Shown here in pieces: positions 12,130-55,376 of a stretch of DNA of 64,000 nucleotides (positions are counted from its first letter, which is position 1; every line of letters begins with the position of its first letter). The notes beneath the pieces were generated by a model that did not search any database, was not told the DNA's origin, and saw only the letters and a list, made by a program, of their open reading frames with translations. Origin of the DNA: Nanobdellota archaeon (GTDB taxonomy: Archaea; Nanobdellota; Nanobdellia; Woesearchaeales; GW2011-AR4); the NCBI GenBank assembly GCA_038046385.1, contig JBBSWH010000005.1, forward strand, positions 64,339 to 128,338, in the 5' to 3' direction. The translations under genes and the position numbers were made by a program.

Positions 12130-14181
12130 CTAGTATGCTGTTCTTTTTCTAAACATAAACAACAAAAGAAGAACAAATACTGCAATCCCTATTGATATAG
12201 CCGGCAAAATCCACCTATCATCCGAATCAACATTCATGAACAAAAGGATTCTTTGAAGAATGCTCGCGTTCCACAAGCCAATTGATAATTCTTTTGTCGC
12301 TTCATATTTTTTGCCTGTGTCATCTGTGTACAGAATTTGAACATTAAAATCATTCTTTCCGTATTTCAATTCTTTTCCGATTGAATTCAAATTAAATTTG
12401 CGGTCATTCTCAAGCCTTGCAAGATCCCACTGCGTTTCTATTCCGTTTCTTGTTACTTTCAGCACAGCGCTTTTCGGCAATGAAGAGGATTTTCTTGCAG
12501 CAGTAAAAATTATTGTGAAGTTTTCATTGTATGAAACATTCTGCGGATACTGCAGGTTTTCTATTTCTATCTTAGGAATGTCTTTTATTGTAAAGTTGAC
12601 AAAGGATGACTTTGAGACGATGCTGCTTTTCAAAATGACAGGAATTTCTTTGTAGCCTGTCTTGCTTTTTTCTATGCCAAAAGAGAAATTTGCCGACTGG
12701 GAGATTCCAAGATCAAGGCTTTCGCATTTGTTTTCAAAGCAGACGCTTGCGCCGCTTAAGAAAACATTCCCGTTGTTTTTTGCACTGCACAGTATTTTTG
12801 CATTCTGATACTGGTAAAACTCATTTTTTGTGGCTGCGCATTCCAGTTCAACATTTGCAGAATATTTTTTTTCCTTTTCGTCTTCGAATAAATTTGCAAG
12901 CTGCTGCATCTCTTCAATATCAAAATAATCTTCTCTCACGCTGGCGACAAAACTTGATTCATCTGAAATGTTTTCAAGAGTCCTGACTGCAACCGGAAAA
13001 GTATAGGAATATTTTTTATCGAGAGCGCTGCTTACCTGCACTATCCAGAAAACCTTTCTTTTTTCGAACGGCAAAAGAAGGATGCTTTTTGCCCCATCTC
13101 CCATTATTTTGACTTCTTTTGGCTCATTTACGTAAACTTCGGTTGCATAGTAAAAACTGTTTGTATTTTCTATGTCTGCTTCTATGAGGTTGTAAGAGCC
13201 GAGTGCAACTGCTTTTTTGAGTATAGTTATGCTGACTTTTAATGGAATGGTATATGTGCCGGAATGGCTGACAAGGCTTGTTTTAATTTCCATGTCTTTC
13301 GCTTTTAAGTCTGCATTCTTTCCGAGCCACTGATAATATGTTGACGGATCATCAGAATCAACAGACTCTTTGAATTTCAGATGTGTTGGGTCTACCCATC
13401 CAAACTCGCCGTATGTGACATCAAAAGGAACCCACCCATAGCCAGGAAAATAAACCTCTGCCCAGCCGTGCGCCCCCCAGCTGTCTGCAAACAATTCTGA
13501 ATTTGTGTAGGCAATGCCGGATATGAATCTTGCAGGTATTCCAACAGACCTTGCCATTGCAATGAACAGAGAAGTCAACTCATCACAAACACCCTGCTTG
13601 TTTTCCAGCACCCAAGACGCTTTTTGGCTTATATCTGCTGTGAGCGTGCTTAGGTTATAGTTTATGTTGTTTTTTGTCCAGCCAGCCAGCTTGAAAACGG
13701 CGCTGTACAAATCGTCTTCGCCTTCAACAAGCTGCGATGCCAGCCTGATTATTTCAGGGTCGTCTGAGTCTATTGTCGGGCTCGGCTTTGTGTAAGGAAG
13801 GATATCATCAGGAAGCTTTTGTATTGGGAACGGTATTTTTTCTTTTATCTGGACTATGCTGTTTGTGGTCTTTACCTGCGCATTAAGATTAAAGCTTATT
13901 TTGTCTTCTGGGCTTTTCCATTGAAACTGCAAAACATCATTGTTTTGCTCTGCTTTTGGATTTGTTTCAAATTTAAGCAATTCCTGATTCTTGTATTCCT
14001 TTGGATAGAATGTCAGGTTTATGGTTGCGCTTTCAACATAACCACTAGGAGTTAATTTGACAATCTCTATCTGAGAAGCCATTTTGACATCTGCTGTCAC
14101 AGTCTGGCTGCTGTAGTACCACTGCGCATAGGCTGAAGGAATCAATAATAAAATCATCAAGAATACAAGCTCTTTTTTCAT
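12130..14181 (-). CDS. Large secreted/anchored transglutaminase-like protein
   Basis: Signal peptide, QGVCDELTSLF (Cys), HGWAEVY (His), PFDVT (Asp), C-terminal TM helix. Confidence 0.75.
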   Translation of the reverse strand: MKKELVFLMILLLIPSAYAQWYYSSQTVTADVKMASQIEIVKLTPSGYVESATINLTFYPKEYKNQELLKFETNPKAEQNNDVLQFQWKSPEDKISFNLNAQVKTTNSIVQIKEKIPFPIQKLPDDILPYTKPSPTIDSDDPEIIRLASQLVEGEDDLYSAVFKLAGWTKNNINYNLSTLTADISQKASWVLENKQGVCDELTSLFIAMARSVGIPARFISGIAYTNSELFADSWGAHGWAEVYFPGYGWVPFDVTYGEFGWVDPTHLKFKESVDSDDPSTYYQWLGKNADLKAKDMEIKTSLVSHSGTYTIPLKVSITILKKAVALGSYNLIEADIENTNSFYYATEVYVNEPKEVKIMGDGAKSILLLPFEKRKVFWIVQVSSALDKKYSYTFPVAVRTLENISDESSFVASVREDYFDIEEMQQLANLFEDEKEKKYSANVELECAATKNEFYQYQNAKILCSAKNNGNVFLSGASVCFENKCESLDLGISQSANFSFGIEKSKTGYKEIPVILKSSIVSKSSFVNFTIKDIPKIEIENLQYPQNVSYNENFTIIFTAARKSSSLPKSAVLKVTRNGIETQWDLARLENDRKFNLNSIGKELKYGKNDFNVQILYTDDTGKKYEATKELSIGLWNASILQRILLFMNVDSDDRWILPAISIGIAVFVLLLLFMFRKRTAY

Positions 14182-14242
14182 TTATTGGATTATGATATTT
14201 TTGTTTATAAGGTTTGCCATAAATTTAGATTATTTCAAACGC

Positions 14243-14458
14243 CACTATCGGCGGCTGTCGTCACTACGTGACTCGCTTGACACAACTTGAGCAAAGCTCA
14301 AGTGTGCAATTGGTAGTAACCAATTTGCACCCCGAATGGGGCGTCCCCCGTCAAGCCAGCGCCGACGTGGCGTGCGACGAGCCGAGGGACGGCTCCTACG
14401 GAGTGGCGAGTAGGATTTTTCACAGGGAAAAATCCGTAGCACCGCCACTGTCGGCGCA
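14243..14458 (-). ncRNA. GC-rich structured RNA candidate (possible SRP/7S RNA; strand uncertain)
   Basis: GC island in AT-rich DNA. Long helix GCTTGAC/GTCAAGC plus TCGTC/GACGA; stacked hairpins. Minus strand shows Alu-domain-like GTGGCGGTGC..CCTGTG..CTACTCG. No helix-8 GGAA/AGCA motif found. Confidence 0.35.
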
Positions 14459-14519
14459 AAGAGAACCTAACATTAATCCAAATAACATTTATAAATGGAC
14501 TAGATGTACTTACCAGTAT

Positions 14520-14656
14520 GCCGAGGTCGCATAGCCTGGTATTGCGGTGATTTCTGAAAAGAAACCGTATGATTGCTAGGCTTACGCTTTTTGGAGTAAG
14601 TGTTATAAAAATCCACTGTCCGAAAGGATCCGGGGGTTCAAATCCTCCCCTCGGCG
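14520..14656 (+). tRNA. tRNA-Ser(GCU) with two putative introns (29/30 and 37/38)
   Basis: GCCGAGG-TC-GCA..TGC-G-GTG[14550-14570]GATTGCTA[14579-14610]A-TCCAC-TGTCCGAAAGGATCC-GGGGG-TTCAAAT-CCTCC-CCTCGGC-G. Spliced arm is GTGGA-TTGCTAA-TCCAC. Length check: 84+21+32=137 nt. Confidence 0.7.
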
Positions 14657-14670
14657 TTTATTTTAATAAA

Positions 14671-15072
14671 ATGGGAGTAGCAACAGAGCTGGAAAAGGGC
14701 AAGTATTTTCTTCACAACAACGAGCCTATGAGGGTTACAAGAAAAGAGGTTGTTGCTGTCGGAACGCATTCACACACCAAGCTCAAGATTTTCTATCAGG
14801 GAGTTGAAGGCAGGGGAGAAAAAACAATCATACTGGGGCATACTGATAAAGTAGATATTTTGGACATAACAAGAAAACAGGGACAAGTGATATCAAAAAA
14901 CAACGACAAGGTGCAGATAATGGATCTTGTTTCGTATGAAGTGATGGAAGCAAAAGCAATTCCTGAAATAATGGATGATTTCAAAGAGGGATTGATTGTG
15001 ACTTTTATAAATTTCAACGGAGACTGCAGGATTGTGGATATAAGGGGAAGCCAGAAAGAAGAACATTCATGA
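14671..15072 (+). CDS. aIF5A-like translation factor (divergent hypusine loop)
   Basis: 133 aa from the internal ATG, because the track ORF start overlaps the tRNA. By-eye alignment to archaeal aIF5A runs along its full length; the loop reads AVGTHSHTKLK versus the usual SPGKHGSAKAR. Confidence 0.7.
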   Translation: MGVATELEKGKYFLHNNEPMRVTRKEVVAVGTHSHTKLKIFYQGVEGRGEKTIILGHTDKVDILDITRKQGQVISKNNDKVQIMDLVSYEVMEAKAIPEIMDDFKEGLIVTFINFNGDCRIVDIRGSQKEEHS

Positions 15073-17362: not shown

Positions 17363-18220
17363 ATGATGACAGATAGTATAGGAAAAAATGTCAACCTCAT
17401 AGGATGGATGGACAATTTTTATAGTACTGCTCCCTGTGAAGTCAGACTGGAAGGGCTTGAGAGCAGGATAATAAAAGCGTCAAATCCAAGCGGGCTGCTT
17501 GATTTGTTTAACCCTAATGCAGAAAGGATTGCGACACTGGGAGAAATAGCCACTGCAAGAGTAATTGCACTTGATTATTTATTTGAAATGGTTCCTAATT
17601 TAAGCGATATGTTTGCAATAAGTCATATCTGCAAACTCGATAGTGTGATTGACATTGACCAAGCAATGCTTGGAAGAATCCTGAAAGCATTTGTAAGATA
17701 TCCTGAAATATTCGGAATATGGCAGGAAAGATTGACTGCATCAACGCATATGGTAAGGGGGATTGATGACAATCAAGATAAAATTTTCTTTGCCGATGGA
17801 AATAAATTTGATAGAACTATTGACTACAAAAAAGCATTGGAAGGAGAATTATCAGATGGTGGAATACGCTATGGCGATGAAACTCTAAGTAATATGGCTG
17901 ATAAGTCTTACTCCTCTTTATCACTTGCGTCTTATTTGGATGCAAAAGGCGGAAAATTCAATGGCTCAGAATTATTTAATCATCCAATATTCAAGGCAGC
18001 TTTGAATGATGATGCGCTTAGAAGCCAGTATGTATTGGCACTGCAGTTGCTTGATTTTGTAAGCATTCATGATGCAGGAAGATATGCACTTTGGCGTCCT
18101 GGTGGAATGAAACCAGGATTTGGGAGGCAGATATCTCTTGGATATAAAGGCGAGACATTCTATCCGCCGAATAATGACACAGTAGGACATGCTGCACTAG
18201 TATTACCAATAAAATCCTGA
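17363..18220 (+). CDS. Hypothetical protein
   Basis: 285-aa ORF, divergent from the Lrp gene; no motif recognised. Confidence 0.5.
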   Translation: MMTDSIGKNVNLIGWMDNFYSTAPCEVRLEGLESRIIKASNPSGLLDLFNPNAERIATLGEIATARVIALDYLFEMVPNLSDMFAISHICKLDSVIDIDQAMLGRILKAFVRYPEIFGIWQERLTASTHMVRGIDDNQDKIFFADGNKFDRTIDYKKALEGELSDGGIRYGDETLSNMADKSYSSLSLASYLDAKGGKFNGSELFNHPIFKAALNDDALRSQYVLALQLLDFVSIHDAGRYALWRPGGMKPGFGRQISLGYKGETFYPPNNDTVGHAALVLPIKS

Positions 18221-18332
18221 ATTTAATTTTTATTCAGCAACCTTTATATGAAGAAAATCAAAGATTTTCTAATATAAAAGTTCGAACTGAGTTCGATACT
18301 TTTATAAAACGACTTCTTATACTAAATGCTAT

Positions 18333-18507
18333 AGCGGGGTAGGGCAGCCAGGAGTGCCCGATGAGGTTGCTTATGAATAAGAAGCAGCCGCGGAAGGCTC
18401 ATAAGCACATCGAAATGCCTTAGACACCCATACCAGCCTCTAAAGCTGGGGTTAAAGGTCGGAAGTTCAAAAACCATTAATTTGGTCTGGAAGTCTTCCC
18501 CCCGCTA
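18333..18507 (+). tRNA. Initiator tRNA-Met(CAU) interrupted by four putative introns
   Basis: AGCGGGG..CCCCGCT-A (A1:U72). Removing 18364-18395, 18404-18425, 18432-18455 and 18472-18493 gives ATGGG-CTCATAA-CCCAT, variable AGGTC and T arm GGAAG-TTCAAAT-CTTCC. Length check: 75+32+22+24+22=175 nt. Confidence 0.65.
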
Positions 18508-18552
18508 CTTTTCTTCACAAAGCTTTTATAACAATATCGTTCTACAGCTTTT

Positions 18553-19227
18553 ATGATAATCTGCGGTATTGATGAAGCTGGTCGCGGTCCATTAATCGGC
18601 CCTATGGTGATGGCCGGCGTTCTGATAGATGAAAAAGACGAGGCTAAATTCAAGGCTATCGGTGTAAAAGATTCTAAACTGCTAACCCCTTTCCAAAGAA
18701 AAGACCTATTTGACAAAATAAAATCCATTTCTAAAAAATACAAGATAATAATTGTGCAGCCTGATGAAATAGATGATGCTGTTTTTGGAAAAGGTGGATT
18801 AAACCTAAACTGGCTTGAAGCAAACACTTCTGTAAAAATACTAAATGAACTAAATCCTGAAAAGGCAATAGTTGATGCTCCGAGCCCGAACATAAAAAAA
18901 TACACAGAATACATAAGAGAAAAGCTTGACAACAAAAAGGTGAAGCTTGTTTTGGAACATAAGGCGGATGTTAATTATCCTGTTGTCGGCGCAGCTTCGA
19001 TTCTTGCAAAAGTCACAAGGGACAATGAAATCGAGAAAATAAAAAAGCAGATTGGAATTGACTTTGGAAGCGGGTACATGTCTGATCCAAAAACGTCTGA
19101 GTTCTTGAAAAAACACCACAATAAATTTCCCGAGATTTTCAGGAAGAGCTGGGCGCCCTATCAGAAGATTGCAGACAAAAAGATGCAGAAAAATTTATCT
19201 GATTTCTCCAAATTCATTAAAGAGTAA
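18553..19227 (+). CDS. rnhB: Ribonuclease HII
   Basis: GIDEAGRGPLIGPMV, DSKLL and ASILAKVTRD motifs. Confidence 0.9.
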   Translation: MIICGIDEAGRGPLIGPMVMAGVLIDEKDEAKFKAIGVKDSKLLTPFQRKDLFDKIKSISKKYKIIIVQPDEIDDAVFGKGGLNLNWLEANTSVKILNELNPEKAIVDAPSPNIKKYTEYIREKLDNKKVKLVLEHKADVNYPVVGAASILAKVTRDNEIEKIKKQIGIDFGSGYMSDPKTSEFLKKHHNKFPEIFRKSWAPYQKIADKKMQKNLSDFSKFIKE

Positions 19228-25642: not shown

Positions 25643-26353
25643 ATGATACAGAAAACGAAAGAAGAGTATTTGAAAGAACATAAGAATTGGGGCAGTATTA
25701 AACTTATCAATTTTCCCGAAAAGAATGAAAGATTGGCAGAGCTTGTCGGCATAATTCTTGGTGATGGTAACCTACATGTTTATACAAAAGGTAGTAATGT
25801 GGGAACTTATTCTTTAAGAATAGCTGGAAATTACATAAAAGATCATGAATATCTTACAAATTATGTGGCTAGTTTGTGCAAAGACTTGTTTATGGTTAAG
25901 CCTAGGACATACAAACAGCCAAATGTAAATTGCATTTATCTTATAATTGATGGTAGGCTAATTATAGATTTTTTAATTGAGATTGGATTAAAAAGCGGCA
26001 ACAAAATAAAAAGTCAAGTTACAATACCCGATTGGATTATGGAAAATAATGAATATCTTAAATCATGCATAAGGGGATTGATAGATACCGATGGCTGCGT
26101 TTATGAAATGCTGCCTCATTGGCCAGGCTTGTTCCAGATTAATTTTGAGAACAGAAACATAACTTTGTTGAGAGATACAAGAGAGGCTTTGATAAAGCTA
26201 GGCTATCACCCTTCTAAAATTTGTGGCAATAGAACGCAATTCGGAACTAAAATTTATATCTCTCGAAAGGAAGAAATCAAAAGATTTTATAAAGAGATTG
26301 GGTCTAGCAACGATAGGAATATAAAACAATTCACTAAAGTGTTTAACTCATAG
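25643..26353 (+). CDS. Free-standing LAGLIDADG homing-endonuclease-like protein
   Basis: Two LAGLIDADG motifs (LAELVGIILGDGNL; IRGLIDTDGCV). GGAGG SD 9 nt before the ATG at 25643. The stop overlaps tRNA-Gln by 2 nt. Confidence 0.8.
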   Translation: MIQKTKEEYLKEHKNWGSIKLINFPEKNERLAELVGIILGDGNLHVYTKGSNVGTYSLRIAGNYIKDHEYLTNYVASLCKDLFMVKPRTYKQPNVNCIYLIIDGRLIIDFLIEIGLKSGNKIKSQVTIPDWIMENNEYLKSCIRGLIDTDGCVYEMLPHWPGLFQINFENRNITLLRDTREALIKLGYHPSKICGNRTQFGTKIYISRKEEIKRFYKEIGSSNDRNIKQFTKVFNS

Positions 26354-26442
26354 CCCCGTAGTCTAGCGGTCACTTGAATAAAGCTGCAGAAGGATTCGGC
26401 CCTTTGGAGGCTGAGGCGGCAGTTCGAATCTGCCCGGGGCTA
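26352..26442 (+). tRNA. tRNA-Gln(UUG) with 18-nt D-loop insertion
   Basis: AGCCCCG-TA-GTCT-AGCGGTCA[26373-26390]AGGAT-T-CGGCC-CTTTGGA-GGCTG-AGGC-GGCAG-TTCGAAT-CTGCC-CGGGGCT-A. A1:U72 as in archaeal tRNA-Gln. Confidence 0.75.
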
Positions 26443-46928: not shown

Positions 46929-47279
46929 TTGCAGGGTTAGTACTTAGCTTCGGCGCATGAAAAGGCTCGAAAGGGCTTATTCTGCTGAGGAAAGTCCGCC
47001 CACCATAAAAGGCCACTCGCACAAGCGAGTTTTGGAGACAGAAGGCAACCACTCAGAAACGAGACCGCTGCATCTAAGGGTGAAGCTCGCGAAGGCTCCT
47101 GTGAAGGAGCTGAGAACAGCTGACGTTTATGCAGAATGGATGAAACGGTGAGTCCTGGCCGGTGCAAGTCCGCGAACAAGCAATTGTTCCAGTACGCTTA
47201 GTTTAATGCTAAGACAGGCTATCGCATTATCAATAATGCACAAGGGCCTGACAAAAGGCGGCTTATTCTGGCCCTGCAA
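46929..47279 (+). ncRNA. rnpB: RNase P RNA
   Basis: CR-I GAGGAAAGTCCGCCC (46987-47001), CR-V ACAAAAGGCGGCTTA (47251-47265), P1 pairing TTGCAGGG/CCCTGCAA at the ends. Confidence 0.85.
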
Positions 47280-48933: not shown

Positions 48934-49005
48934 GGCTGCGGTAGTTTAGTGGCAGAATACGAGACTGTGGATCTTGTGGCGCGAGTTCGATTCTCGCCCG
49001 CGGCC
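48934..49005 (+). tRNA. tRNA-His(GUG), intron-less, genomically encoded G-1
   Basis: G-GCTGCGG..CGAGA-CTGTGGA-TCTTG..GCGAG-TTCGATT-CTCGC-CCGCGGC-C (C73). Confidence 0.9.
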
Positions 49006-49022
49006 CTCTTTTTAAAATAACA

Positions 49023-55244: not shown

Positions 55245-55260
55245 ATTCGCTTACGCTCAT

Positions 55261-55346
55261 GCGGGGGTGGCAGAGCCTGGTCTAATGCGCTAGCTTGAGG
55301 GGCTAGTCCCTAAGTGGGTGCGCGTGTTCGAATCACGTCCCCCGCA
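55261..55346 (+). tRNA. tRNA-Leu(GAG), intron-less
   Basis: GCGGGGG..CTAGC-TTGAGGG-GCTAG, long variable arm, GCGTG-TTCGAAT-CACGT-CCCCCGC-A (A73). Confidence 0.9.
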
Positions 55347-55376
55347 TTTAAAATCAAAATATAAAAAACAAAAAAA

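Follow-up and report, generated by a model that had tools for sequence, protein, structure and literature searches.

The window analysed here is a stretch of 64,000 nt, and on its forward strand, at positions 18333-18507, lies a 175-nt gene for the initiator tRNA, tRNA-iMet(CAU). The gene consists of five exons with a total length of 75 nt and four introns with a total length of 100 nt, which interrupt the tRNA at positions 29/30, 37/38, 43/44 and 59/60 in the standard numbering (Table 1). Its layout is AGCGGGG-TA-GGGC-AGCCAGGAGT-GCCC-G-ATG, followed by 144 nt ending in ...TCTTCC-CCCCGCT-A, and CCA is not encoded at the 3' end. Removal of the four introns gives a 75-nt product that folds into a perfect cloverleaf (-33.3 kcal/mol) and that ARAGORN calls tRNA-Met(cat). 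Archaeal initiator tRNAs are marked by an A1:U72 pair at the end of the acceptor stem and by a run of three G:C pairs, G29-G31:C39-C41. Both marks are present in the product, in its acceptor stem AGCGGGG...CCCCGCT-A and its anticodon stem ATGGG/CCCAT. An earlier note on this DNA had proposed that four excisions restore an initiator cloverleaf. The fold, the ARAGORN call on the product and the initiator marks bear this out, and the coordinates, lengths, sequences and sum (75+100=175) given there were all correct on re-reading. The boundaries of introns 1 and 4 are unique, and introns 2 and 3 can each be slid by +1 nt with the product unchanged. The unspliced gene is invisible to ARAGORN and to Rfam, the latter in both gathering and E-value modes, when these are run on the window.

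The gene is preceded by a TATA-box-like element and followed directly by a T-rich stretch. An upstream block, CTTTATAAAACGA(C/G)TTCTTATACTAAA..CTAT, is conserved before the orthologue at loci L004/L027, and the orthologous locus L028 has a comparable upstream element, CTTTATAAA. T runs are also found 3' of the gene in the orthologues. The neighbouring gene is rnhB, which encodes RNase HII, and the relatives of this RNase HII are Woesearchaeota. Assemblies from Hainich groundwater contain identical copies of the locus.

The window was scanned for T arms that are intact and have acceptor strands to match, which revealed two further interrupted tRNA genes, those for tRNA-Ser(GCT) and tRNA-Gln(TTG). 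Decoding by deletion of one segment followed by ARAGORN proved too permissive, and constrained enumeration was used instead. Three of the five tRNA genes in the 64 kb, those for tRNA-iMet(CAU), tRNA-Ser(GCT) and tRNA-Gln(TTG), are interrupted, with seven introns in total, and all three are missed by ARAGORN and Rfam. The presence of three interrupted tRNA genes implies that the organism must have a splicing endonuclease accepting non-canonical sites. A tblastn search with an approximate M. jannaschii EndA sequence, a weak test of absence, found no EndA-like ORF in the window or the fetched loci. The tRNA-Ser(GCT) gene is preceded by a TATA-like box and followed by a T run. An ORF listed at 14569 starts inside this tRNA gene, and the aIF5A-like gene probably truly starts near 14672. 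The GC-rich structured stretch at 14238-14472 had no credible Rfam match in a search of 14180-14700 (best ar7, 16.4 bits against a gathering threshold of 60, E 0.57). A divergent or interrupted SRP RNA is one possibility, and some other non-coding RNA is another.

Table 1. RNA genes and associated elements in the window, numbered from its first nucleotide.
Feature	Position	Strand	Description
GC-rich structured stretch	14238-14472	+	MFE -105.6 kcal/mol, z = -6.06 against shuffles; TATA-like box upstream
tRNA-Ser(GCT)	14520-14656	+	137 nt; spliced 84-nt product called tRNA-Ser(gct)
tRNA-Ser(GCT), intron at 29/30	14550-14570	+	central helix GCGG/CCGT, 4 bp
tRNA-Ser(GCT), intron at 37/38	14579-14610	+	
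TATA-box-like element	18300-18309	+	TTTTATAAAA; -33 to -24 relative to tRNA position 1; putative promoter
tRNA-iMet(CAU), exon 1	18333-18363	+	tRNA positions 1-29: AGCGGGG, D arm GGGC-AGCCAGGAGT-GCCC, G26, A27-G29
tRNA-iMet(CAU), intron 1 (29/30)	18364-18395	+	32 nt: A + 8-bp hairpin GGTTGCTT/AAGCAGCC + GCGG + AA
tRNA-iMet(CAU), exon 2	18396-18403	+	positions 30-37, GGCTCATA: G30, G31, anticodon loop with CAT; invariant across all orthologues
tRNA-iMet(CAU), intron 2 (canonical 37/38; 38/39 gives the same product)	18404-18425	+	22 nt
tRNA-iMet(CAU), exon 3	18426-18431	+	positions 38-43, ACCCAT; 6-nt micro-exon, 3' strand of anticodon stem
tRNA-iMet(CAU), intron 3 (43/44; 44/45 gives the same product)	18432-18455	+	24 nt: A + hairpin CCAGC/GCTGG + GGTT + AA
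tRNA-iMet(CAU), exon 4	18456-18471	+	positions 44-59: variable loop AGGTC, T-stem 5' strand GGAAG, T loop TTCAAA
tRNA-iMet(CAU), intron 4 (59/60)	18472-18493	+	22 nt: A + hairpin ACCA/TGGT + C + TGGA + AG
tRNA-iMet(CAU), exon 5	18494-18507	+	positions 60-73: T60, T-stem 3' strand CTTCC, acceptor 3' strand CCCCGCT, discriminator A73
T-rich stretch	18508-18515	+	CTTTTCTT; directly 3' of the gene; likely archaeal terminator
tRNA-Gln(TTG)	26352-26442	+	91 nt; spliced 73-nt product called tRNA-Gln(ttg)
tRNA-Gln(TTG), D-loop intron	26372-26389	+	18 nt; central helix GCGG/CTGC, 4 bp; inner helix 3 bp
Archaeal RNase P RNA	46963-47275	+	Rfam 121 bits
tRNA-His(GTG)	48935-49006	+	intronless
tRNA-Leu(GAG)	55260-55347	+	intronless; ARAGORN match; not listed by Rfam at E<=1

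Splice motifs and predicted order of splicing

Bulge-helix-bulge (BHB) motifs were drawn in the standard geometry, with exon nucleotides -6 to -3 paired with intron nucleotides n-5 to n-2. In this geometry, each 3-nt bulge is cut between its second and third nucleotides. A BHB or relaxed half-motif (hBH) at each junction, suggested as a check in the earlier note, could be drawn for all four introns; that of intron 2 is thermodynamically weak and the least secure. The motif of intron 1 is relaxed, with an inner helix (h) of 8 bp, an outer helix (h') of 2 bp and the bulges TG|A and AA|G. Its central helix (H) pairs C24-C25-G26 with CGG and has three of four pairs, against four of four in the orthologue L016. 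Because the 3' strand of the D stem is borrowed for this helix, intron 1 needs a fold other than the cloverleaf. The same applies to intron 3, which borrows A38-C41. Its motif is a relaxed hBH with an h of 5 bp and an H of ACCC/GGTT (3/4 pairs), without an outer helix. In L028, intron 3 has a different hairpin and a perfect H (GGGT) in the canonical register, with the same ..TAA tail.

Intron 4 has a near-complete hBHBh' motif, in which H is TTCA/TGGA (4 bp), h is 4 bp, h' is the 5-bp T stem and the bulges are AA|A and AG|T. This BHB is present in the MFE structures of both the primary transcript and the intermediate that retains intron 4 only. Unrelated introns at 59/60 in L013 and L016 have TGAA as the 3' strand of the central helix. 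The earlier note had placed a relaxed BHB site in the T loop, in which a second copy of GGAAG pairs with CTTCC. We found a different pairing, in which TGGA (18488-18491) pairs with T54-A57 (TTCA, 18466-18469), AG and T60 form the 3' bulge, and the genuine T stem serves as the outer helix.

At intron 2, H (CTCA/TTAG, 3/4 pairs) contains a C.U mismatch at its centre, the bulges are TA|A and AC|A, and h is GCA/TGC (3 bp). The 5-bp anticodon stem serves as the outer helix and is present only after intron 1 has been removed. In the intermediate from which intron 1 has been removed, the BHB conformer has -29.6 kcal/mol against an MFE of -37.6 kcal/mol, a gap of 8 kcal/mol. The orthologues carry introns of 12-26 nt at 37/38, several of them with a perfect TGAG. 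The first two anticodon bases have been described as lying within the central helix of the BHB (PMC4090602).

A generic BHB filter was rejected as evidence because such sites are as common in shuffled sequence; applied loosely to all site pairs, it returned 79 candidates in the gene and 64 +/- 14 in shuffles. A high-scoring alternative BHB at gene positions 133/160 was also rejected. It uses the duplicated GGAAG and deletes the T loop, and its product is not a tRNA.

It is improbable that the gene is real and spliced with an intron count or boundaries other than those proposed. The 3' cut of intron 3 could lie one nucleotide earlier, so that the tRNA would have 76 nt and its variable loop 6 nt, or introns 2 and 3 could lie at 38/39 and 44/45. 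The +1 slide of these two introns would allow the latter, and the MFE structure of the intermediate with intron 3 only uses the register ACCC/GGGU, in which the 3' bulge is moved by one nucleotide. However, all orthologues with fewer introns or none give a 75-nt product whose variable loop is the 5-nt AGGTC, the perfect central helix of L028 intron 3 lies in the canonical register, and the BHB scores worse at 38/39 and 44/45 in a hand analysis with the same geometry. We infer the cleavage positions at introns 2 and 3 to within +/-1 nt.

With the proposed boundaries, maturation may proceed as follows. Transcription from the putative TATA-box promoter would give a precursor made up of a leader, a trailer and about 175 nt between them. 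A splicing endonuclease would cut in the 3-nt bulges flanking the 4-bp helix at each junction, an RtcB-type ligase would join the exons, and RNase P, tRNase Z and a CCA-adding enzyme would finish the ends; the enzymes named here are those expected for such a pathway. The motifs of introns 1, 3 and 4 occupy separate parts of the precursor and can coexist, whereas the motif of intron 2 overlaps those of introns 1 and 3. This overlap, together with the use of the anticodon stem as an outer helix, points to ordered splicing. Intron 2 would become a proper substrate only after removal of intron 1 and probably also of intron 3, so that introns 1, 3 and 4 would be removed first and the canonical intron 2 last.

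In the MFE structure of the primary transcript, UGCCUUA (18416-18422) in the 3' part of intron 2 forms 7 bp with UAGGGCA (18340-18346), which includes the 5' strand of the D stem. The 3' strand of the D stem is held by the tail of intron 1 in the same fold. The pairing of intron 2 with the D stem could be a chance match or an alternative fold of the precursor.

Intron number and selection among orthologues

Orthologues were gathered by walking out from RNase HII homologues, and further ones by scanning species-representative genomes and metagenomes with the 31-nt exon 1. The 31-mer recurs unchanged in 14 species-representative MAGs and two metagenome contigs. The orthologues, all of which have the initiator marks, form a graded series. 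Six are 75-nt genes without introns (L015, L019, L021, L022, L024 and L025). A single intron is found at 37/38 in four (L017, L018, L020 and L026), at 59/60 in L013 and at 13/14 in L033/L034. Introns at both 29/30 and 37/38 are present in L008=L014 and L012=L023, and L028 has a third at 43/44. All four sites, 29/30, 37/38, 43/44 and 59/60, are occupied in the window and in L004/L005/L027. L016 has four interruptions, of which the third is ill-defined.

The spliced product of the window gene is identical to the intronless L021 gene at 74 of 75 positions. In orthologues with zero to three introns, the introns are missing seamlessly at the predicted junctions 29/30, 37/38, 43/44 and 59/60. Intron 1 is missing from 11 orthologues. 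Intron 3 is missing, with a seamless ACCCAT|AGGTC junction, from L008, L012 and all genes with one intron or none, and intron 4 is missing from L008, L012 and L028. The ACCCAT micro-exon is kept in L028 and L016, although the introns flanking it there are unrelated to those of the window. It is this comparison of orthologues, and not BHB scoring, that excludes chance.

Intron number also follows the relatedness of the neighbouring RNase HII. Loci whose RNase HII is 100% or 91% identical to that of the window have four introns, those at 78% and 71% have two, and those at 48-58% have none or one. An intron count that climbs with relatedness to the window fits a stepwise accumulation. In the lineage of the window, the introns at 29/30 and 37/38 would have been gained first, that at 43/44 next and that at 59/60 last.

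Some of the loci had further features. The initiator tRNA gene of L033/L034 (2592-2697, plus strand of that locus) is 106 nt long, and its only intron, of 31 nt, lies at 13/14 in the D arm and has the central helix TAGG/CCTA and an inner helix of 7 bp; RNase HII identity in this lineage is 67%. In L029-L032, where RNase HII is 67-68% identical, there is no initiator tRNA beside rnhB. The L016 gene lies on the minus strand of its locus in an NC_groundwater Woesearchaeota MAG and is 167 nt long. Its third insert, in the variable region, has no convincing BHB and is flanked by an AAAGTC direct repeat, and was counted only as an interruption. The MAGs of L013, L021, L022, L023 and L026 have a Woesearchaeota-type initiator tRNA and syntenic genes and were deposited as 'uncultured Methanosarcinales archaeon'. 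This label is probably a taxonomic error.

The window and the L004 lineage were compared for signs of selection. In the flanking genes, third-codon identity is 68% for rnhB and 62% for a pseudouridine synthase gene, and about 32-38% of synonymous sites have diverged. The tRNA-iMet gene outside the intron-1 hairpin is identical at 147 of 149 positions, and its exons at 75 of 75. Both differences lie in the intron-3 hairpin, where they form one compensatory pair, C:G changed to T:A in L004. At the third-position rate of rnhB, the probability of two or fewer differences is about 5e-22. Such conservation points to strong purifying selection on the gene.

The helices of the introns give related evidence. 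Among six distinct sequences of intron 1, both bases vary in five of six inner-helix pairs, and 97% of cells are paired. The covariation score was reached by none of 500 shuffles and slid controls were far lower, in an alignment extracted with the structure already in mind. Introns 2 and 4, loops included, are 100% identical between the window and L004 (P about 1.6e-4 for 23 loop nucleotides). Since they are identical in the only close relative, they hold no covariation information. Their conservation beyond the needs of a BHB could reflect a function or a recent gene exchange. The intron-1 hairpin (18364-18395) is entirely unlike its counterpart in L004 (2147-2179). Two types of this hairpin were found. 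The window, L008 and L016 share the type AGG(C/T)T..., and L004 and L012 share the type ATTCC.... The two types are distributed out of step with RNase HII relatedness, and this mismatch suggests that recombination took place or that the intron was replaced.

These data bear on the possibility that the window gene is a decaying pseudogene, an insertion-riddled copy of tRNA-iMet whose work is done by a second, intact copy elsewhere. The comparison covers the window and the loci of its relatives, the BHB of intron 2 is weak, and the gene goes unrecognised by ARAGORN and Rfam, all of which would agree with decay. However, the exons are unchanged from L004 despite the synonymous divergence of the genes nearby, and the intron helices have undergone compensatory substitution. 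Selection and compensatory changes together make a pseudogene very unlikely. Moreover, the insertions lie only where a BHB can be drawn and have the conserved tails GCGGAA, GG(G/T)TAA and TG(G/A)A plus 2 nt, and the promoter and terminator motifs are retained. The 31-mer is present as a single copy in each of the 14 representative assemblies, a set that lies outside the window's own species and includes interrupted genes. In the eight representative MAGs with an interrupted gene, the interrupted version is the only copy of the 31-mer found.

A group I or group II ribozyme core spans hundreds of nucleotides and is recognisable by covariance models. Apart from the unusual length of the gene, nothing speaks for an assembly error or chimerism, self-splicing group I/II introns or mobile-element fragments, and their likelihood is close to nil: the same 175 nt occur in three independent assemblies, which excludes an assembly artefact, and the L004 type occurs in four more; the inserts, at 22-32 nt, are far too short for a ribozyme core, and Rfam gave no match at E<=10 over 18200-18650; and an 11-mer search for intron copies elsewhere in the 64-kb window returned a single chance match, with no sign of transposition.

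Our data indicate that the gene is very probably a functional tRNA-Met(CAU) initiator gene of a Woesearchaeota-like DPANN archaeon from Hainich groundwater, with four EndA/BHB-type introns that are predicted to be spliced. The earlier note had likewise read it as a functional initiator gene with EndA-type introns, and junction polymorphism, intron-helix covariation and purifying selection support that reading. We regard as doubtful the further idea that the four introns are selectively maintained stages in the maturation of the cell's only initiator tRNA and not neutral passengers. It derives from the identity of introns 2 and 4 and from the dependence of the canonical intron on removal of the non-canonical ones before it can be presented. 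If it were true, the introns or the excised, possibly circular, RNAs would have a function, and candidate roles would be gating the supply of initiator tRNA or shielding the gene from elements for which tRNA genes are targets or sites of integration.

Known multi-intron tRNA genes and significance

Reviews and the tRNAscan-SE 2.0 paper give at most three introns per archaeal tRNA gene, and the earlier note had accordingly stated that up to three were known and that four would be exceptional. The first statement matches the reviews. However, four introns are recorded for some Asgard tRNAs, and three for an initiator tRNA, in Supplementary Data 4 of Valentin-Alvarado et al. 2024 (PMC11291895). 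The four-intron genes are those for Arg-TCT and Ile2-CAT and, by one of two methods, those for Leu-GAG, Trp-CCA and Lys-TTT (PMC11291895). Four introns are therefore rare and equal the record, but are not unprecedented. The Asgard genes (Freyarchaeia and Atabeyarchaeia; PMC11291895) are similar to the window gene in having several short non-canonical introns in one archaeal tRNA gene. They differ in that they belong to another superphylum, that those with four introns are elongator tRNA genes that appear in the supplementary table only, and that a stepwise-gain series of orthologues is not described in that paper.

In Thermoproteales (Sugahara et al. 2007/2008; summarised in PMC4033280 and PMC8450103), BHB, hBH and HBh' motifs likewise occur at non-canonical sites besides 37/38, some motifs can form only once another intron has been removed, and introns have accumulated rapidly within a lineage. 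Unlike the window gene, these genes have a reported maximum of three introns and come from thermophilic Crenarchaeota with an (alpha-beta)2 EndA. Transposition of introns between tRNA genes has been inferred there, whereas no intron-intron similarity was found in the window. Closer to the present organism, disrupted tRNA genes have been reported in DPANN lineages including Woesearchaeota, together with an alpha4-type EndA that has an L3 insert, in a study whose DPANN set included a Woesearchaeota genome (PMC5829648). The DPANN work as a whole (ARMAN/Micrarchaeota with an epsilon2 EndA and the lineages with an L3-loop alpha4 enzyme; PMC3239211, PMC5829648) concerns the same superphylum and describes a raised load of non-canonical and multiple introns. 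Standard predictors give incomplete tRNA sets for these genomes, which hints at undetected disrupted genes. No report of a specific four-intron gene or of an interrupted initiator tRNA was found in this DPANN literature. Ectopic and multiple tRNA introns are also known from the red alga Cyanidioschyzon merolae (PMC3728597), but these belong to the nuclear genome of a eukaryote, whose Sen complex is heterotetrameric, and are unrelated by descent. The window gene is thus an extreme case of a known phenomenon and not a new mechanism.

In the literature searched, we found no report of a four-intron tRNA in DPANN or of a four-intron initiator tRNA, and the gene would be the first of either kind to be described. 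The initiator tRNA is essential and normally encoded by a single-copy gene. Every initiator tRNA molecule in this organism would need eight cleavages and four ligations, which predicts a broad-specificity splicing endonuclease in a mesophilic archaeon with a small genome. Because three of the window's five tRNA genes escape ARAGORN and Rfam, the tRNA complements of DPANN MAGs are likely to be underestimated, and inferences of completeness and auxotrophy drawn from them may be affected in the same way. The series from zero to four introns, with additional sites at 13/14 and possibly at 45/46 in sister lineages, would record intron gain in one gene. Such a series among closely related genomes may be useful for testing how BHB introns originate and spread.
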